Source: Candidatus Thalassarchaeaceae archaeon (GTDB lineage: Archaea; Thermoplasmatota; Poseidoniia; Poseidoniales; Thalassarchaeaceae). From it: DNA of 64,000 nt. Each line of letters starts with the position of its first letter. Position 1 is the stretch's first letter. Both the position numbers and the translations under genes were made by a program. The notes under the pieces are model-generated. The model did no database searches, was not told the DNA's origin, and saw nothing but the letters and a program-made list of their open reading frames with translations. Of this stretch, positions 6,499-21,631 are shown piece by piece. The stretch is from positions 102,307-166,306 of the forward strand of contig JBJLBP010000001.1 in NCBI GenBank assembly GCA_045568075.1, in the 5' to 3' direction.

Positions 6499-6536
6499 CG
6501 CCTGCGTGTAAGAGAATTTGCACCCCCTCGCAGGCG
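6499..6536 (+). promoter_or_regulatory. inverted repeat CGCCTGCG-N22-CGCAGGCG in divergent promoter region
   Basis: 8-bp perfect arms between the divergently transcribed dehydrogenase gene and the 203-aa ORF. Confidence 0.2.
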
Positions 6537-6571
6537 ATATTTCATAGACGGTCAATGCGAACAAGAAAGAC

Positions 6572-7183
6572 ATGGACCGGTCGGGAGACGACGGGAGCGA
6601 ATCTCCACGCATAGATGTGAAGACGTTGCCAGATTCAGTCGCGCGCCTTTGGGAGACGATGCTGCGGCTCGATCCTTCATGGGATTTAGCGCGCTGGCTA
6701 GACGAGAGAGCTGAGGAAGAATTGGAGCTTGTAGAGTCTCATCTTGGGCGTGAGCGCATGCGTCTAGAACAGAGACTGCATCGAATCGAGACTTTGGTCA
6801 AGCGGCTCAAGAGGCAGCGAGAAGTAACTGATCGAGGCCTGATGAATGATCCCCTGCAGAAGAATCTCTTCGATGTCTTCGATGGGCCAGCCATCCCATC
6901 GGATGAGATGTATGAGGTGGACGAAGCTGATGAGCCCGTGGTCTCGGGTGGAATACTCGGAGTCGAGGATGACCCTCTGCTGGCGATTGTTGCTGAACAC
7001 ATCCTCGGAACAATTGAAGTGGCCTCGCTGCAAAAGGCGGCGGCTGTCCATTTCGATGAGCTTATCGGGGCACTGAGTCCCATGGGAATCTCTGTTGATG
7101 AGGTCGATGAGGCGATTGCGCACCTCTTACAACATCGTATAATTATCGAGTTAGAACAGGATTTATTTGGTCTGAACTCGTAA
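6572..7183 (+). CDS. hypothetical acidic coiled-coil protein
   Basis: 203-aa ORF with ATG start ending 15 nt before the methyltransferase ORF; predicted coiled coil (LELVESHLGRERMRLEQRLHRIETLVKRLKRQ) and acidic C-terminal half; no known motif. Confidence 0.5.
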   Translation: MDRSGDDGSESPRIDVKTLPDSVARLWETMLRLDPSWDLARWLDERAEEELELVESHLGRERMRLEQRLHRIETLVKRLKRQREVTDRGLMNDPLQKNLFDVFDGPAIPSDEMYEVDEADEPVVSGGILGVEDDPLLAIVAEHILGTIEVASLQKAAAVHFDELIGALSPMGISVDEVDEAIAHLLQHRIIIELEQDLFGLNS

Positions 7184-7197
7184 TTTTTCCCTCGAAA

Positions 7198-9231
7198 GTG
7201 AGGTTGGAAGCAACCGTTCCCTTCAAAGAAGAGACCCCTGTCGGCAGTCGCGTCGATATCATGGTAAGCGACGCATCGGGATGGTACGCACGACTTGATA
7301 GGTCGTGCGAGAATAGAATCGAACAACTCGACTCGTGGCTTGATGCCTGGGAAGAGTCGATTCGGCACAATATCCCTATCGCAGCCACAATGCCCAGCGA
7401 TTGGCCCACACTGCCTGCTGGGCTACTCTCGAATCCAGGAGCGGTTCTCGACCATATGCTGGCGCGCTACGATGCTGAAATTGATGGTCGCTCGCCTCGC
7501 GGTGCTTACGCAACTCCCGCCCGCTTCGCGGATGCAATGCTCGCCGATGAGCTCGGTGAGCGAGGTGCCGGAGTATCAACTCAGATGCCAACGGACATTT
7601 CGCTGGCCGCTCTACCTCCTGGCTTCCGCGCCTTTGCCGCTCAAATGAACGAGGCAAACTCACCCGAACTGGACGATGATTTGGACGAGGCGGTGCTGGC
7701 TGGAGAGAAGACCGCCTCTGGAATCCCACTTCCCTTTGCCGACCCAGCAGTCGGAGCCGGCCTCTTCCCCGAGCGCGTACTGAAGGTTCACTACGAGCGA
7801 ATCGATGGAATGTCGGACTCGGCTCGAAAGGAGGATACAATTCGACTCCTCTCAAACATGCAACTTCTCGATATCTCTGAGATCGCCGTGAGCTGTACTC
7901 GTCGGCGTCTCTTACTGGTTCTAGCCAAATCGGGTCTCGTCGACCTCGATGGGCCTGGTGACGATTCGCGCATCGCCCGCGAGGAAGCGGAGATTCTACT
8001 CGATTCCAGCGTCCAGCATGGTGATGCACTGCGCGGCATCTGGCCTTGGAATGATGAGCCGCGCCTACTAATTTGCAATCCTCCTTGGTTGCGCATCAAG
8101 GATAGGTTCCGAGGTCATCCTGATGGTAGCAATCTGCGTAAGGAATTGTCTCGAGAGTTGCGCAGTATCACAGAGGATGATGGTCGGCTACGATTCAGCA
8201 CCCTTCTTGGTAATGTGAACCTCTACCGCCTATTCCTCGAGCGTTCCTTACAACTCGTCAGCGAAGGAGGTCGAGTTCGTATGATTGTACCCGATTCACT
8301 GTTGCGCGAGAAGAGTAGCGTACCTCTTCGAAAGCTCATCGTCGAGCGGAACGAATGGGACTCAGCTTGGTCATTCCCTGAGAGTCAGAGGGTTTTCCCT
8401 GGGGTCTCGCAGGGTGTTCTTGTCATCGGCATCACCGTTGGGGGAGAAACTTCTGCTCTGAGGAGCTGGGGTCCTTTGGAGAGCAGCGATGTTCTACCTT
8501 CGACTGGACTCGACCCAAAATCACCGGAACTCGTCCTTGAGCGCGAAATTTGGTCGGTCTGGACCGATATGAATTGGGCTGTCCCGAGAATGCCGCGCGC
8601 TGAACATGAGCGCCGCTCGGTTCTGAAGGCGATTTCGCAACTCGCTGAACTGCCTCGCCTATCTGAGGAACATAATTGGCTCAACCCGAGTGGCGAACCA
8701 ATCCGTGTTCGTGTCGGAGAAATTGACCAAACTACGTGGTCGTCTGACATCCGTGATTGGAACCCTCGCTCTCGTGGCACACCATTCATCCGCGGAATCC
8801 ACTTCAACCTCGATGGAAGCAAGGTCTCAATCAACCACCCTGGATACAACTCCTCGATCCCAAGGGACTCACTCGAGCGGTCGCAGGCTCTGTGGAAGGG
8901 GCCTATCGAGTCGCGCGGAGTAAGTCGGATCGCTTGCCAGGCCATCGTTAACGCTCAGCAAAACCGCCGACTGCGTTGGGTCGTCGTACCCCCAGACTGT
9001 GTTCTAGGGAATTCGGTGAATTTCCTCGAGTTGCCAGAGGCTGTTCTAGACAGTCTCGCAGAGCAGTATGGAACTCTCGATGATGGTCTGCTCTGGCTTG
9101 CTGAGCACCTAAACTCAGACAAACTCAATCTCTGGTCACGTGCCTGGGCGGCGAATAATAACGTCAACAATTACGAGATCGAAAACCTACCCTTCCCACC
9201 CCCAGTCAGCCTCGCTGCTATTCAACTGTGA
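7198..9231 (+). CDS. N6-adenine-specific DNA methyltransferase, gamma class (Eco57I/TaqI-like)
   Basis: Motif X GAYATPARFADAML, motif I FADPAVGAGLF and motif IV LLICNPPWLRIKD in gamma-class order, followed by a roughly 380-aa C-terminal domain; GTG at 7198 or ATG at 7261 as start. Confidence 0.7.
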   Translation: MRLEATVPFKEETPVGSRVDIMVSDASGWYARLDRSCENRIEQLDSWLDAWEESIRHNIPIAATMPSDWPTLPAGLLSNPGAVLDHMLARYDAEIDGRSPRGAYATPARFADAMLADELGERGAGVSTQMPTDISLAALPPGFRAFAAQMNEANSPELDDDLDEAVLAGEKTASGIPLPFADPAVGAGLFPERVLKVHYERIDGMSDSARKEDTIRLLSNMQLLDISEIAVSCTRRRLLLVLAKSGLVDLDGPGDDSRIAREEAEILLDSSVQHGDALRGIWPWNDEPRLLICNPPWLRIKDRFRGHPDGSNLRKELSRELRSITEDDGRLRFSTLLGNVNLYRLFLERSLQLVSEGGRVRMIVPDSLLREKSSVPLRKLIVERNEWDSAWSFPESQRVFPGVSQGVLVIGITVGGETSALRSWGPLESSDVLPSTGLDPKSPELVLEREIWSVWTDMNWAVPRMPRAEHERRSVLKAISQLAELPRLSEEHNWLNPSGEPIRVRVGEIDQTTWSSDIRDWNPRSRGTPFIRGIHFNLDGSKVSINHPGYNSSIPRDSLERSQALWKGPIESRGVSRIACQAIVNAQQNRRLRWVVVPPDCVLGNSVNFLELPEAVLDSLAEQYGTLDDGLLWLAEHLNSDKLNLWSRAWAANNNVNNYEIENLPFPPPVSLAAIQL

Positions 9232-9442: not shown

Positions 9443-10027
9443 ATGGGAATTCATCCAAAAATAGGCATTACTGGCCTTCCGAGGGCTGGCAAGTCTGCGG
9501 TTCTCGAAAAAGTTGTCAATATGCTAAGCGATGAGCGACGTCAAGAGAAGCGCTCTCGCAGAGATGACACCGCAGGAAATCCGATCGTTGGTGGGATGAA
9601 AACGCGCACAATTCTCGAAGATGGTCAACGCGTTGGGTTCGAATGTGTAGATATCATTACTGGAGATTCCGCAGTCATGGCACATCGAGACATAGACTCT
9701 CGAACTCGAATTCTGGGATACGGTATCAACCCCGAAGCATTAGACGAAATCGGAGTCGCCGCCATTCAACGAACAATCGAGGAGTGTGAAATCCTCGTAA
9801 TCGATGAAATCGGCAAGTATTCTGTCGAGAGCGAGGCCTTTGTCAAGGCTGTTCGTGAAGGCCTCGACAGAGATATGCCGACGATTTTGACCCTTCACAA
9901 GAAGAGTCGGCATCCGCTGCTTCAGGACATTCGTCGCCGTGATGATGCACGTATCCTCGAAGTGACTCCTGTCAATCGCGCGCTTCTGCCATACAAGATT
10001 CACAAGTTGGTCCGCGAGACTTACTGA
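9443..10027 (+). CDS. nucleoside-triphosphatase THEP1 family (COG1618)
   Basis: P-loop GITGLPRAGKS, VGGMKTRTILEDGQRVGFECVD, Walker B ILVIDEIGK and C-terminal VTPVNRALLP match the THEP1 NTPase pattern. Confidence 0.8.
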   Translation: MGIHPKIGITGLPRAGKSAVLEKVVNMLSDERRQEKRSRRDDTAGNPIVGGMKTRTILEDGQRVGFECVDIITGDSAVMAHRDIDSRTRILGYGINPEALDEIGVAAIQRTIEECEILVIDEIGKYSVESEAFVKAVREGLDRDMPTILTLHKKSRHPLLQDIRRRDDARILEVTPVNRALLPYKIHKLVRETY

Positions 10028-10089: not shown

Positions 10090-10473
10090 ATGGAATCCCC
10101 CGCGGCCCGCCTCGAGCGCGTGCTAATCGGCATCACTATCCCCGCCGCATTCCTAAGCGCGCTCGCCCTTTCAGAGGGTAGAATCGAGGTGCTCGGCTGC
10201 ACCAGCAGCTCTTGTGCAAGCATCACTGATGCCGCGCTCGTCCTGCCTATCGTCGTACTCATCTGCCTAGCAGGACTCCTCATCCTCCGCGTCTCGCGCG
10301 GACGAGAGCACGGCGAAGCACCCCTCGACCGCTGGTTCAGCCGCGAACCAGAGTCAGTGATGCGGCAACGCCTCGAAGAAGAGCGATTCGATGCTGACGA
10401 TGAAGGCATGAGTTCACGTTGGGCCCATCTTGAAAAGAAAAATCTCGAGGAGAGGTACGGCGAGGAAGAATGA
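10090..10473 (+). CDS. hypothetical membrane protein
   Basis: 127-aa ORF with two hydrophobic segments and a charged C-terminus. Confidence 0.4.
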   Translation: MESPAARLERVLIGITIPAAFLSALALSEGRIEVLGCTSSSCASITDAALVLPIVVLICLAGLLILRVSRGREHGEAPLDRWFSREPESVMRQRLEEERFDADDEGMSSRWAHLEKKNLEERYGEEE

Positions 10474-12938: not shown

Positions 12939-12985
12939 CTGCCTTGATGGCTATCGCAACACACCCCATTAGATTGGAGCACAAG

Positions 12986-13023
12986 CCGGGATTTGCACCC
13001 GGGTCCACGGATCTGCAATCCGT
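12986..13023 (+). terminator. two adjacent GC-rich hairpins downstream of the dehydratase gene
   Basis: CCGGG-ATTTGCA-CCCGG followed by ACGGAT-CTGCA-ATCCGT, read directly from the sequence; function as terminator is inference. Confidence 0.25.
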
Positions 13024-13189
13024 TGCATAGCTACTCTGCCACTCGTGCGACAGACGCCCGACCCCCGACCCCCTCTTGAAGAATCTTCTCAGTGATGATG
13101 AGTGTCAGCGCCGAACCTCCACTTGTGAATGGAAGGAAGAGGGAGATTTCCGGTAGTATGTTCAAAGAGTAGATTCTCTAGGGCGTATT

Positions 13190-14041
13190 GTGGAAAAAGA
13201 GTGGTGGAAAAAGGACGACCCTCAGTGGCATGAGGAAAATCAGCAGGACCCACCATCCGAAGCCGACCTAGCGGAGCAACAACGCATCGTACAGGAGCGT
13301 TATCGTAAAGAACACTCAACAGGCAATGAAGAAGACAATGAAACAAACAACATGTTTCCAAAATCTATTGTTATTGTTGGTGTTGTTGTATTGGTAATAG
13401 GCGTCATGCTCATCGGTTTTGCAGCTGCATCTGTAGGTGATCTGGGGTCTGATGAAGAATGGATATCCGTAGACTCAAAGATTGATGCAAAATACCCAGG
13501 ATACAACGAGATTCGGGTTGAAGATTGCTACACTGACGATTGGGGTGATGAATACTGCGAATATTGGTACGAATTGGAGTGCTGGGTTGATTTGGACGTA
13601 TCCTACATAGTGGAAAATACCACTTATCATGCTCAGTTCGACCAATATCATATCGAAAATTACGAAGACTACGATGGAGCCGAGGAGGATTGCTTAGAAT
13701 ATGGCCAGAATGGAACTATGATGGTGGGCACCAACTTTGAGATTTTTTACAACTCCAACGACCCAAGCGATGCACGCCTTGAACCTCCCATGAGCGGTGC
13801 TGCGATTTTGTTGATGTTTTGTGGAATTGGAGTTCTTTTTGGAATTCTAGCTTTGGTCGGCTTCCTTCGTGGGGATTGGGGAACGAGTGCTTCTAGTAGG
13901 GCAAGTACTGGAATTACGTTCAACATTGGTGGCCGTGGTTCTTTCATGGGAAGAGGAAGAAGACATCGGAAGGTAAGTCGTAAGTCACGAAGAGGTTCTA
14001 GAGGTCGGTCTGGTGGCGGCAGATCTGGCGGCGGTCGTTGA
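13190..14041 (+). CDS. hypothetical two-TM membrane protein (DUF3592-like topology) with RG/RS-rich tail
   Basis: GTG start (or ATG at 13352); TM1 SIVIVGVVVLVIGVMLIGF, Cys/Trp/Tyr-rich domain ending in FEIFYNSNDPSDARLE (resembles the DUF3592 motif), TM2 AAILLMFCGIGVLFGILALVGF, then RGRRHRKVSRKSRRGSRGRSGGGRSGGGR; local GC about 35-45%. Confidence 0.55.
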   Translation: MEKEWWKKDDPQWHEENQQDPPSEADLAEQQRIVQERYRKEHSTGNEEDNETNNMFPKSIVIVGVVVLVIGVMLIGFAAASVGDLGSDEEWISVDSKIDAKYPGYNEIRVEDCYTDDWGDEYCEYWYELECWVDLDVSYIVENTTYHAQFDQYHIENYEDYDGAEEDCLEYGQNGTMMVGTNFEIFYNSNDPSDARLEPPMSGAAILLMFCGIGVLFGILALVGFLRGDWGTSASSRASTGITFNIGGRGSFMGRGRRHRKVSRKSRRGSRGRSGGGRSGGGR

Positions 14042-14089
14042 TTTCCCAGCCCTGAAATAACCGCATTTCAAATGAGGTGAGCCTTCCGT

Positions 14090-14974
14090 GTGCTCATGAT
14101 GGAGCGCTTACAAGTTCAGTCTCGCTCCCCATTTGAGATTCATCACATACTGACTGGTTTGGAAAAAACACCTCAAACTACAATTGAGGCTGAACTATTC
14201 CTTCCGGAAGGCGATGGACCGTTTGGGTGTGTAATTGCCCATCATGGAAGCAAAGGTTGGGCAACTCATCATCAAGACCACATCGATGGTTGGATCAATG
14301 CTGGGCTGGCGGTTTGTAAGGTAAATTCATTCGCCGCAAGAGGGATTGATTCAACGGTTGACGACCAACTTTCGGTAACTCATGCAATGATGCTTGTTGA
14401 TACCTTTAGCACGCGTTCTGTATTGGCTCAAGACCCTAGGATCAACAAGATTGGAATCGCAGGTTGGAGCCTCGGTGGAACTGTTGCTCTGTACTCGGCA
14501 TGGTCTCCTATTATCGAGATTCTAGGGTCTGCATTCGATGCTCATTTGCCATTCTATCCAGCAGCTCATATTCGACCCGATATCCAAAATTGGTCGGACT
14601 CACCAATTTTGATTCTTCATGGAGATGCTGACAATTGGACTCCTGTGCATCTGGTTGAAGAACTACTTCCTCAACTTCCGAATGCTACCTTACATACATA
14701 TCCTGATGCACACCATTCTTTCGACAGTGAAAAAGAACTGACACTTCTTCCAAAGGCGGTTCGCTTAAGGAAGCGAACTGCTAGAATAGACAAGAATGGA
14801 TACATGTCTGGAGAATTATTACTTGGTATTCGATTGCCTCTGAACGAGCGCTGGCAGCGTAGATGGATTATCCGACTTTTGCGAAACAGAGGGGCCCATG
14901 TGGAAGGCAACCCCTCTGCTCGTGCTGATTCTCTAGATAGGGCTAGAGATTTCTTCGTAGAGCAACTTTCCTAG
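14090..14974 (+). CDS. alpha/beta hydrolase, dienelactone hydrolase-like
   Basis: Nucleophile elbow GWSLGG, LILHGDADNWTP and C-terminal HH as in DLH-family hydrolases. Confidence 0.6.
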   Translation: MLMMERLQVQSRSPFEIHHILTGLEKTPQTTIEAELFLPEGDGPFGCVIAHHGSKGWATHHQDHIDGWINAGLAVCKVNSFAARGIDSTVDDQLSVTHAMMLVDTFSTRSVLAQDPRINKIGIAGWSLGGTVALYSAWSPIIEILGSAFDAHLPFYPAAHIRPDIQNWSDSPILILHGDADNWTPVHLVEELLPQLPNATLHTYPDAHHSFDSEKELTLLPKAVRLRKRTARIDKNGYMSGELLLGIRLPLNERWQRRWIIRLLRNRGAHVEGNPSARADSLDRARDFFVEQLS

Positions 14975-14985
14975 GATAATTGGAC

Positions 14986-15011
14986 TGCAAATTAACTGGT
15001 GTAAATTTGCA
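14986..15011 (+). terminator. inverted repeat TGCAAATT-N10-AATTTGCA between hydrolase and aminotransferase genes
   Basis: 8-bp perfect arms read from sequence, 12 nt after the stop at 14974; terminator role is inference. Confidence 0.25.
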
Positions 15012-20773: not shown

Positions 20774-21631
20774 TTACGGCTTGCGCATCAAGTGCCTGTG
20801 ATAGGCCATTGAGCCACTAACAAATCCCTCATAGACGGGAGTTCCTTTGACTCCGGCAAATGTTTCAAAACTACGACGGACAGATTTTGGCACCTTTTCT
20901 TCGATTGCTTTCATCTTCGTCTCGTTGATTTCGTCAAGTGCTCTGATAACCTCTTGAACAACATCTGCTGATTCAACAATTTCGAATCCTCTCGATTCGA
21001 ATAAGGCTGGGAGTGAAGCCATGGTTTTGGCATCTCGGAGATCTGTCCAACAAAACATCCCACCAGGCTTGAGAACACGGTATGCTTGCTCTACGAATGC
21101 ACCCATGTCACCGTAGCAGTGTGACGATTCCACATTGTATACAACGTCGAAGGATTCGTTTTCAAAAGGTAAGTCCTGTGCATTACCTTCGATGAACTGA
21201 AGGTTGGTTTGAGCGGAATACCATCGCTTGCAATGGCCGACTGCTTCTGCTGAGAAATCAACTCCAGTAAGTTTGGCAGGAGTGTGTGTCTTCGCTATCC
21301 AACTGGCTCCACCTCCCCGCCCAGATCCTACTTCGAGGACTTGTTTTCCTTCGAGATCGACTCCTCGAATGTTCATCGAGTATAGTTGTATGAACATTCG
21401 ATTAGGCTCATCATCAGAATCTAACTCAGGCCCGTTATCATCTTCGAATCCATAATTCATGAATCGAAAATCGGATTCGTCGTTTGCCTTGGCTAATTTC
21501 TGATACCACCATTTCCACATTCGGTTCTGTAACCGGCCTGGTGCTAGGCGCAGCATGGTCACGAAAAATCGAGCGGGTAGCCCCATTTTCTTGGGAGATG
21601 CGACGTGCATGTGAGCACCTATTGCTTCCAT
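20774..21631 (-). CDS. class I SAM-dependent methyltransferase
   Basis: Motif I VLEVGSGRGGGASW, post-I acidic residue, LKPGGMF. Confidence 0.8.
   Translation of the reverse strand: MEAIGAHMHVASPKKMGLPARFFVTMLRLAPGRLQNRMWKWWYQKLAKANDESDFRFMNYGFEDDNGPELDSDDEPNRMFIQLYSMNIRGVDLEGKQVLEVGSGRGGGASWIAKTHTPAKLTGVDFSAEAVGHCKRWYSAQTNLQFIEGNAQDLPFENESFDVVYNVESSHCYGDMGAFVEQAYRVLKPGGMFCWTDLRDAKTMASLPALFESRGFEIVESADVVQEVIRALDEINETKMKAIEEKVPKSVRRSFETFAGVKGTPVYEGFVSGSMAYHRHLMRKP

Follow-up and report, generated by a model that had tools for sequence, protein, structure and literature searches.

A predicted gamma-class N6-adenine DNA methyltransferase is encoded at positions 7261–9231 of the window (the whole 64,000-nucleotide stretch of DNA that was analyzed), as judged from its sequence motifs and modeled structure. 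It is probably an epigenetic housekeeping enzyme and not a defense system, since no restriction partner lies nearby and the gene is passed on vertically in a housekeeping neighborhood throughout one family of ocean archaea. The explanation that we favor, and consider reasonably likely, is that of a monomeric gamma-class m6A enzyme that arose from the Alw26I/Eco31I/Esp3I branch and has been a persistent orphan since the ancestor of Marine Group IIb (Thalassarchaeaceae).

Gene layout and identity of the methyltransferase

The window originates from an archaeon of Marine Group II (Ca. Thalassarchaeaceae). Members of Marine Group II, still uncultured, rank among the most abundant archaea of the plankton. 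The features of the locus are as follows:

6536..6554, + strand: GATATTTCATAGACGGTCA, a conserved non-coding element 5' of the 203-aa protein gene
6572..7183, + strand: gene of the 203-aa acidic protein, lineage-limited and matching no known family
6608–6847: helical hairpin and long helix of the 203-aa protein (residues 13–92; residues 57–92 basic)
6848–6967: disordered acidic linker of the 203-aa protein (residues 93–132)
6968–7180: acidic winged-helix domain of the 203-aa protein (residues 133–203)
7198..7260, + strand: in-frame extension from GTG 7198, most likely a non-coding 5' region
7211..7231, + strand: CAACCGTTCCCTTCAAAGAAG, a conserved non-coding element 5' of the methyltransferase gene, putatively promoter-like
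7261..9231, + strand: methyltransferase coding sequence, 656 aa plus stop (PF07669, TIGR02987, PADLOC MTase_II, AF2, Foldseek)
7261–7506, + strand: family-specific helical N-terminal extension (aa 1–82)
7507..7542, + strand: motif X (YATPARFADAML; aa 104–115 in the 677-aa numbering)
7561–7710, + strand: disordered acidic insert between motifs X and I (aa 101–150)
7711–8460, + strand: methyltransferase catalytic domain (aa 151–400)
7735..7767, + strand: motif I, FADPAVGAGLF, the AdoMet-binding loop (aa 180–190 in the 677-aa numbering)
8077..8088, + strand: motif IV, NPPW, the catalytic loop (aa 294–297 in the 677-aa numbering)
8461–9195, + strand: target-recognition domain (aa 401–645)
9443..10027, + strand: THEP1-type NTPase gene (PF03266, E 5e-38)

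Both ORFs described in an earlier, sequence-only reading of this DNA are present, namely 6572..7183 (+, 203 aa, ATG start) and 7198..9231 (+, 677 aa, GTG start), and the GC content of the region is native, as that reading held (0.54–0.56, matching the flanks). The GTG start was not retained, since conservation in the family begins at M22 of the 677-aa frame (MVSDASGWYARLD) and the database homologues are mostly 656 aa long. Upstream of the methyltransferase ATG, no in-frame start was present in 36/161 loci, and alternative starts were inconsistently placed elsewhere. According to the alignments, the most likely start is ATG 7261, giving a protein of 656 aa. Counted to this ATG, the gap between the two genes is 77 nt instead of the 15 nt given earlier; in the relatives it measures 60–82 nt in 64 of 65 loci and 231 nt in the remaining one.

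Motifs X, I, and IV were found in the gamma-class order X-I-IV. The TP of motif X is kept across the family, the P0242 lineage excepted, and D161, P162, and G167 of motif I were invariant in 60 sequences. Some 380 aa do follow motif IV, as had been pointed out, but this C-terminal region is not a single part: approximately 105 aa carry the catalytic motifs V–VIII, and approximately 245 aa form the target-recognition domain.

According to the Pfam analysis, PF07669 (Eco57I) matched the methyltransferase with 41.5 bits, the gathering cut-off being 25.3. The NCBIfam profile TIGR02987 matched residues 180–668 (E 1.4e-30), so the C-terminal region corresponds to the recognition domain of that family. 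The TIGR02987 score of 106.5 bits lies under the curated cut-off of 353.5, indicating a related branch and not a member; being so far under the cut-off, it does not allow the target sequence of the Alw26I type to be transferred to the archaeal enzyme. PADLOC reported the generic MTase_II, along with weak type IIG matches (E 1e-8 and weaker) and weak matches to mad2/mad8 (E about 1e-3). In a library of 1.8 billion proteins, the archaeal clade was isolated, the scores dropping from 720 bits to about 106, and the nearest full-length outgroups were Alw26I-like enzymes; one of them, P0313, is fused to a Dcm domain, which is absent from the archaeal methyltransferase.

The AF2 model of the whole protein (pLDDT 84, pTM 0.81) comprises a catalytic and a target-recognition domain. 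The best Foldseek matches were DNA-bound CamA, M.BseCI, PglX, and M.TaqI (E 1e-14 to 1e-10, about 560–660 columns), and the C-terminal domain of the model aligned with the recognition domains of CamA, BseCI, and TaqI. This domain is about as conserved as the catalytic core (majority frequency 0.68 vs. 0.73, with 51 invariant columns), pointing to a target that is fixed. Thus, the assignment to the gamma-class N6-adenine DNA methyltransferases, already made from the letters of the sequence, is borne out by the motif order, the PF07669 score above its cut-off, and the fold matches.

A substrate other than DNA, i.e., RNA (rRNA or tRNA) or a protein amide, would suit the housekeeping-like conservation and synteny described below, and (N/D)PP(F/Y/W) motifs are likewise known from m6A/m2G RNA methyltransferases and HemK-type enzymes. 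However, no RNA or protein methyltransferase family of NCBIfam or Pfam matched at E <= 0.01, and none was among the top 50 Foldseek matches; an alignment of this kind, which the sequence-only reading had named as evidence against its proposal, was sought by both profiles and fold. In addition, the top relatives in sequence and structure are all DNA methyltransferases, with the DNA-recognition domain aligned through the C-terminus. We consider such a substrate very improbable.

Inheritance, neighboring genes, and promoter-like elements

Relatives of the methyltransferase were found in 359 GTDB species genomes, a count of carriers. The best 80 of the 359 relatives all belonged to uncultured marine archaeal MAGs whose order or family, where named, was Poseidoniales or Thalassarchaeaceae. 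The locus was syntenic in 82 loci, and the same gene order was observed in relatives down to 50% identity. The dN/dS values of 0.05–0.06, obtained for chosen pairs, correspond to strong purifying selection, and no relatives were found on viral contigs. Neighboring genes encode an isopropylmalate/isocitrate-type dehydrogenase, phosphopantothenate synthetase, the THEP1 NTPase, GcvH, and RNase H; within at least 6 kb of the methyltransferase, the neighbors are metabolic or housekeeping. The gene therefore has the features of a persistent orphan methyltransferase (no adjacent restriction gene, taxon-wide occurrence, conserved synteny, non-mobile character), as follows from its housekeeping synteny, the 359 species genomes, the absence from viral contigs, and the strong purifying selection.

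The sequence-only reading saw no nuclease, helicase, BREX, or DISARM partner adjoining the methyltransferase, and this is the case; housekeeping-type genes are located there instead. More widely, the Pfam scan of ORFs across the 64-kb window detected no nuclease-like gene, and there was none among the annotated genes of the related loci, which were inspected up to about 10 kb per side. Membership in BREX, DISARM, or MADS was rejected, the matches being generic or weak and partial and no partner genes (PglZ, BrxC/L, DrmA/B, mad1-8) being located nearby.

A place in a restriction system, either as a type IIG enzyme with an unrecognized nuclease or as a type IIS methyltransferase with its nuclease encoded elsewhere, would be in line with the ancestry in the type IIS branch of Alw26I, with the naming of the Pfam family after Eco57I, and with the weak type IIG matches in PADLOC. 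Nevertheless, the hidden nuclease that had been suggested earlier was rejected. The model shows only helices and no beta-containing domain before residue 159, the TIGR02987 match runs through to the recognition domain, the full-length protein aligns with nuclease-free enzymes, and its 656 aa are fully accounted for by the methyltransferase and recognition domains. Vertical inheritance, fixed synteny across hundreds of species, and the lack of viral copies are also atypical of restriction systems. No nuclease-like gene was present in the loci searched, and this origin appears extremely improbable. Of the options raised in the sequence-only reading, the orphan epigenetic methyltransferase is the one that agrees with the data, given the absence of a nearby restriction partner, the syntenic core neighborhood, the purifying selection, the absence of viral copies, and CamA as the best fold match.

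The product of the upstream gene is acidic, as previously stated (pI 4.45, net charge −24), and has one long helix at residues 39–92 in the model. A ribbon-helix-helix reading of its N-terminus (RIDVKTLPDSVARLWETML...) gained no support, since the monomer model contains no strand and no family matched. For the C-terminal domain, the modeled winged helix was kept and the RPA-like designation was dropped: in the search for RPA32C homology, all Foldseek E values exceeded 0.1 and the profile search of PDB sequences was empty. The Pfam RPA_C signal was present in 1/15 and 0/61 family members. This acidic winged-helix domain resembles a module for protein interaction more than a reader of DNA. In the profile search for distant homologues of the 203-aa protein, only close family members were found among the matches listed (at least 120).

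The 203-aa protein may work with the methyltransferase. In a two-protein system, it would be the obligatory partner, its long helix dimerizing and its acidic winged helix recruiting or regulating the enzyme, e.g., as a tether to replication or chromatin proteins. We regard this arrangement as possible, although on balance doubtful. It is favored by the purifying selection on the 203-aa protein (dN/dS about 0.1) and by the distribution of both families, which the searches found only in this archaeal lineage. The 203-aa gene was located directly upstream on the same strand in 65/75 loci of the methyltransferase-side sample and in 78/78 loci of the 203-aa-side sample; the opposite situation, a 203-aa gene mostly found without the methyltransferase, had been considered earlier as evidence against the proposal, and it never occurred in these 78 loci. 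However, unrelated housekeeping genes of the region are equally syntenic, and because the whole region is syntenic, the adjacency is not specific evidence. Moreover, in the P-type clade and P0241, a rearrangement has its breakpoint precisely at the junction of the two genes; the methyltransferase gene is retained in these loci, preceded by TerB-like genes, and the profile HMM found no 203-aa homologue in them. The scarcity of the RPA_C signal and the presence of a separate conserved promoter-like element for each gene also speak against such a system.

Upstream of the 203-aa gene, TT[CG]ATAGA[CG][GA] was present in 107/107 distinct sequences, and its TTSATAGA core ends 21–24 nt 5' of the start codon. 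The position of the element at 6536..6554 would fit an archaeal BRE/TATA promoter of a leaderless or near-leaderless mRNA. Before the methyltransferase ATG, TT[CG]A[AT]A[GA]A ends at a distance of 25–31 nt in 112/162 loci, and a related element, ATTGATATTCAGAAGG, is located upstream of the methyltransferase in the clade without the 203-aa gene. The proposed co-transcription of the two genes is accordingly no more than a possibility: the methyltransferase has its own promoter-like element, including where the 203-aa gene is absent from the adjoining position. As a general promoter motif of the genome, TTSAWAGA was rejected, since it was not enriched in the 64-kb window (10 sites vs. 6.9 expected). 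A few other genes carry look-alikes of this element. For these two reasons, both elements are called promoter-like only. In the favored explanation, the 203-aa protein would come from a gene that is specific to the lineage, distinct from the methyltransferase gene and equipped with a promoter-like element of its own.

The gene downstream of the methyltransferase indeed encodes a THEP1 NTPase, in agreement with the first assignment. It might be supposed that this RecA-fold NTPase, and not the 203-aa protein, forms the functional pair with the methyltransferase. In all loci that have enough flank (150/150), the NTPase gene is the next one downstream of the methyltransferase, and the adjacency survives changes of the upstream neighbor and of the genes beyond the NTPase, including lineages in which both outer flanks have changed. 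On the other hand, the protein belongs to the general THEP1/PRK13695 housekeeping family (E 8.5e-42), its defense-related PADLOC matches (PD-T4-6, mad8) are weak and partial, and the spacer between the genes is about 130–900 nt (median about 170). Where most of the region is syntenic, one adjacency without exceptions also carries little statistical weight, and the pairing seems unlikely.

Variation of motif IV, proposed mechanism, and implications

Over half of the family members carry Arg (rarely Lys or His) in place of the catalytic motif IV Asn; the window copy keeps Asn. The remainder of the protein, AdoMet-binding residues and recognition domain included, remains under strong purifying selection. 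RPPW was observed in 68/120 clusters, 47/83 loci, and 40/74 metagenome loci, and KPPW and SHPPW were also seen. The canonical NPPW is kept by the window, its whole O1 clade, and the P clade. All outgroups have NPPY or NPPF. No alternative (D/N/S)PP(Y/F/W) motif was found in the methyltransferases of the Arg, Lys, or His type. Repeated toggling between Asn and Arg, suggested by the NJ tree of the methyltransferase, was rejected: the tree of a neighboring gene unites all N-type lineages, so one Asn/Arg change suffices.

Since the Asn is replaced in most of the family, the conserved function may differ from canonical N6 methylation. Either RPPW is an unrecognized working catalytic variant, or the family is a methylation-independent base-flipping DNA-binding factor in which NPPW is ancestral; we put forward this pair of possibilities with considerable reserve. 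A factor of the second kind might act with the 203-aa winged-helix protein or with the THEP1 NTPase.

As a rival explanation for the whole family, a methylation-independent role (e.g., a base-flipping DNA binder) or a non-canonical catalytic center, with NPPW looking ancestral, is decidedly unlikely, even though several observations agree with it. Substituted motifs are common in the family against the uniform NPPY or NPPF of the outgroups. The R-type proteins are under the same purifying selection as the N-type ones (dN/dS 0.060 vs. 0.048), and the KPPW lineage has additionally lost the TP of motif X and the P of motif I. In CamA, Asn165, the motif IV counterpart, hydrogen-bonds the flipped adenine (PMC8187626). 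Against this stand the retention of NPPW in the window and in the O1 and P clades and the failure to find any second-site change co-varying with the replacement of Asn by Arg. In addition, the AdoMet-binding residues (motif I, D204, D255) are invariant or nearly so in the R-type proteins, which argues for continued use of the cofactor.

For the favored m6A enzyme, the fold and motifs suggest that the catalytic and C-terminal target-recognition domains would close around a fixed DNA sequence, which is probably short and may be asymmetric. The adenine to be modified would be flipped into the NPPW pocket, where AdoMet, held by FxDPxxGxG, D204, and D255, would donate a methyl group to its N6. In view of the missing cognate nuclease and the stable housekeeping neighborhood, the mark would most likely serve a genome-internal function, such as the timing of replication or repair or gene regulation, rather than defense.

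Searches of the literature found no paper on DNA methylation in Marine Group II or on this methyltransferase. If one orphan m6A methyltransferase is shared by the whole family, a single specific methylation motif, diagnostic of the lineage, is to be expected, and it could be read straight from long-read ocean metagenomes. Such a motif could serve methylation-based binning and virus–host linking, and its possible role in replication or gene control could be examined. The division of the family into Asn and Arg types at motif IV represents a natural, built-in experiment on what this residue is needed for: a methylome comparison of N-type and R-type genera would give the answer without cultivation.

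Comparison with known systems

The top structural match, with TM about 0.5–0.6 at the Foldseek E value of 1e-14 and about 560–660 aligned columns, is CamA (PDB 7lnj, 7rfm), a species-wide orphan methyltransferase of Clostridioides difficile with a regulatory role (PMC8187626). Both enzymes are gamma-class, combine an N-terminal catalytic domain with a large C-terminal recognition domain, have no restriction partner, and are taxon-wide. Their sequence identity is only 12–13%, and CamA is bacterial and conserved at the species level, whereas the archaeal methyltransferase is conserved at the family level. Unlike CamA, the archaeal protein has an extra helical N-terminal extension of 80 aa and an acidic insert of 50 aa between motifs X and I. 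In place of the NPPY of CamA, motif IV reads NPPW in the methyltransferase of the window and RPPW in most of its relatives.

The closest family in sequence is that of the type IIS m6A methyltransferases Alw26I/Eco31I/Esp3I (TIGR02987), with an alignment that starts at motif I and continues through the whole recognition domain. The N-terminal 160 aa of the archaeal protein have no counterpart outside the archaeal clade. In contrast to the Alw26I-type systems, neither a type IIS nuclease nor an m5C partner is located nearby, and the gene is non-mobile and fixed among housekeeping genes. With the type IIG enzymes (Eco57I, MmeI) and PglX of BREX, it shares the PF07669 catalytic domain and the TaqI-like architecture of the recognition domain. 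Unlike type IIG enzymes, it lacks a PD-(D/E)XK nuclease domain; it is roughly half the size of PglX (about 1,200 residues) and has no BREX genes nearby.

Persistent taxon-wide orphan methyltransferases are known in other archaea (PMC10609329), for example, HG1 (CTAG, m4C) in Halobacteria and HG4 (CATTC, m6A) in Natrialbales (PMC10609329, PMC6471742); the survey of persistent orphans makes no mention of Marine Group II archaea (PMC10609329). Like these enzymes, the methyltransferase described here is a solitary type II-like enzyme, conserved and transmitted vertically through a whole taxon, and such conservation of a solitary methyltransferase implies a non-defense function. Unlike HG1 and HG4, it belongs to a different methyltransferase family, and its catalytic motif varies inside the persistent group.

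Identity and fold of the methyltransferase

Two open reading frames (ORFs) follow each other on the same strand, and their GC content (0.54–0.56) equals that of the flanks, in agreement with the native appearance noted in the sequence-only reading. The three motifs named there are also present in the longer frame. The features are as follows.

6536–6554: conserved element before the 203-aa gene, core TTSATAGACGG
6572–7183, plus strand: ORF of an acidic 203-aa protein, start codon ATG
7198–9231, plus strand: 677-aa frame read from GTG
aa 104–115 of the 677-aa frame: motif X, YATPARFADAML
aa 180–190 of the 677-aa frame: motif I, FADPAVGAGLF
aa 294–297 of the 677-aa frame: motif IV, NPPW
7211–7231: conserved element in the spacer, core TTCAAAGAAG
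7261–9231, plus strand: methyltransferase gene from its probable start codon ATG, 656 aa
9443–10027: THEP1 NTPase
10090–10473: 127-aa ORF between the NTPase and GcvH

The methyltransferase matches the Pfam Eco57I methylase domain (PF07669) above threshold and, in PADLOC, the generic type II methyltransferase models. From motif I up to residue 668, the protein also aligns to the NCBIfam profile TIGR02987 (E 1.4e-30), which describes m6A methyltransferases of the Alw26I/Eco31I/Esp3I type IIS systems. In the AlphaFold model, which is based on 60 family sequences and is confident (pLDDT 84, pTM 0.81), an all-helical N-terminal part precedes a catalytic domain of the Rossmann type, and the C-terminal domain is rich in beta strands. 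According to the Foldseek comparison with the PDB, nearly the whole chain aligns to DNA-bound CamA, M.BseCI, BREX PglX and M.TaqI. Since these matches extend over almost the full length, the C-terminal region of 380 aa is predicted to be motifs V–VIII followed by a target-recognition domain of the TaqI/CamA type; no nuclease fold was detected at either end of the protein in the model or by Foldseek. NCBIfam profiles and Foldseek against the PDB also revealed no match with RNA or protein methyltransferase families.

Start codon, upstream gene and neighbourhood

The 677-aa frame represents the maximal ORF rather than the likely protein; the methyltransferase most likely starts at ATG 7261 and not at GTG 7198. 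Its database homologues mostly comprise 656 aa and start with MVSDASGWYARLD, conservation in the alignment begins at the same point, an in-frame start codon 5′ of the equivalent ATG is missing in 36 of 161 related loci, and in the other loci it lies at inconsistent positions. With this start, the spacer after the 203-aa gene is 77 nt instead of the 15 nt given earlier (60–82 nt in 64 of 65 relatives, 231 nt in one).

The spacer element ends 25–31 nt 5′ of the methyltransferase ATG in 112 of 162 loci, and a related element occupies the same place in the clade devoid of the 203-aa gene. GC-rich inverted repeats (cgcgcgcgaacgcgcgc...) also occur in that clade, approximately 60–90 nt before the ATG. 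The element preceding the 203-aa gene is better conserved than that of the methyltransferase and far exceeds the surrounding intergenic DNA in conservation; it was found in all 107 distinct upstream regions, its TTSATAGA core ending 21–24 nt before the start codon. It may be a promoter or a site bound by a regulator. The positions of both elements would fit archaeal TATA/BRE promoters producing short-leader mRNAs; this promoter role is one that we infer, since the core is not enriched across the window. As each gene is preceded by its own conserved element, independent transcription appears at least as likely as the co-transcription that had been assumed. The earlier observation was largely right; revision is needed for the start codon, the gap of 15 nt and co-transcription.

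The 203-aa protein has no match in Pfam, NCBIfam, PADLOC or PHROG and no significant sequence match in the PDB; among the matches listed, its homologues (50–99% identity) belong to this lineage only. Its model (pLDDT 72) begins with a short helix, followed by a helix of 54 residues that is strongly basic in its second half (pI 11.7); an acidic, disordered linker then leads to a C-terminal winged-helix domain of three helices.

The neighbours of the methyltransferase are all housekeeping genes, including those for quinolinate phosphoribosyltransferase, archaeal phosphopantothenate synthetase and a divergently transcribed isopropylmalate/isocitrate-type dehydrogenase; the THEP1 NTPase, the 127-aa ORF, GcvH and RNase H lie 3′. 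The order dehydrogenase, 203-aa gene, methyltransferase, NTPase, small ORF, GcvH, RNase H is held down to 50% protein identity. The 127-aa ORF has no Pfam match, is conserved at 27–95% identity, and has its counterpart on the opposite strand in the P clade (MGIIb-P).

Sampling from the methyltransferase side placed the 203-aa gene immediately 5′ in 65 of the 75 loci that have sufficient flanking sequence; sampling from the 203-aa side placed the methyltransferase immediately 3′ in 78 of 78, so the 203-aa gene is not one that mostly occurs alone. Because the whole region is syntenic, this adjacency alone carries little information. Two TerB-like genes replace the upstream block in the P-type clade (e.g., MED-G33) and at the locus of the relative P0241; the methyltransferase is kept, and a search of those loci with the family HMM gave no homologue of the 203-aa protein. 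Tandem small TerB/DUF533-like genes lie directly 5′ of the methyltransferase in L072 (4934–5883), L083 (4130–5017) and L167 (3019–3971). Of all neighbours, only the THEP1 NTPase is constant: it accompanies the methyltransferase in 150 of 150 loci, also where both outer flanks have changed. In L167, FAD-oxidase and two protein-kinase genes are inserted beyond the NTPase, which is still with the methyltransferase. A functional link to the NTPase or to the 203-aa protein, as a partner of the methyltransferase, is possible.

Elsewhere in the window, a small class I SAM-dependent methyltransferase (Methyltransf_11/25, UbiE-like; 20774–21631, minus strand), 11 kb away, has no kinship to the DNA methyltransferase. 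A tRNA-Cys gene (12975–13048, minus strand) is followed by approximately 2 kb of lower GC (0.47; region 12975–15000) with a 283-aa ORF lacking a Pfam match (13190–14041) and a dienelactone-hydrolase-like ORF (14090–14974). This stretch looks like a small insertion at the tRNA gene, since only 164 nt, with no gene called, separate the flanking genes for the PALP enzyme and the aminotransferase in the relative L001.

Variation at motif IV

The first residue of motif IV differs within the family. Asn is found in this window, its O1 clade (MGIIb-O1) and the P clade; Arg is found in 68 of 120 protein clusters, 47 of 83 loci and 40 of 74 metagenome loci; His occurs in one fragment; and the outgroups all have NPPY or NPPF. 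Lys characterizes the P0242 lineage, in which motif X no longer has its TP and motif I no longer its Pro. The P0242 protein of this low-GC lineage (L085, 8001–9980; KPPW) is still full-length with the same synteny, and a homologue of the 203-aa protein, 216 aa long, is encoded 5′ of it.

In CamA, the equivalent Asn165 forms a hydrogen bond to the flipped adenine (PMC8187626). The Arg-containing proteins contain no alternative (D/N/S)PP(Y/F/W) motif, retain motif I, D204 and D255, and are under the same constraint as the Asn-containing ones (dN/dS 0.060 vs. 0.048); no co-varying second site was found in the family alignment. In the methyltransferase tree, the Asn-containing O1 clade is nested among Arg-containing clades, a pattern suggestive of repeated toggling between both residues. 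Such toggling is not established: the neighbouring-gene tree groups all Asn-containing lineages together, so a single Asn-to-Arg change would be enough. Natural variation at a catalytic residue is unusual and open to direct test by long-read metagenomes.

Distribution and comparison with known systems

Database names of near-identical proteins assign the window to Candidatus Thalassarchaeaceae (Marine Group IIb, Poseidoniales, Thermoplasmatota), an ecologically important and epigenetically unexplored lineage. An exhaustive search over 1.84 billion cluster representatives detected only two further full-length clusters at 50% identity, after which the score fell from 720 to approximately 106 bits, to bacterial-type enzymes resembling Alw26I, among them a fusion with Dcm. 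Outside the archaeal clade, nothing matches the first ~160 residues. Scanning of one genome per GTDB species revealed relatives in 359 species; the best 80 of these are all uncultured marine archaeal MAGs, and their titles, where an order or family is named, give Poseidoniales or Thalassarchaeaceae. No relative was found in viral contigs.

Pairwise dN/dS of the methyltransferase is ~0.05. Conservation in the recognition domain equals that in the catalytic core, which points to one fixed target; in restriction systems, specificity typically diversifies. The evidence best supports an N6-adenine DNA methyltransferase of the persistent orphan type, whose target is fixed; it would have derived from a type IIS methyltransferase lineage and now have a non-defence role.

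Compared with the type IIS enzymes of TIGR02987, the protein aligns from motif I on, yet reaches 106 bits, far under the family cut-off of 353 bits. Its distribution and selection follow the “persistent” orphan pattern described for other archaea in a survey without Marine Group II (PMC10609329) and for CamA of C. difficile (PMC8187626), the top Foldseek match (E 1e-14).
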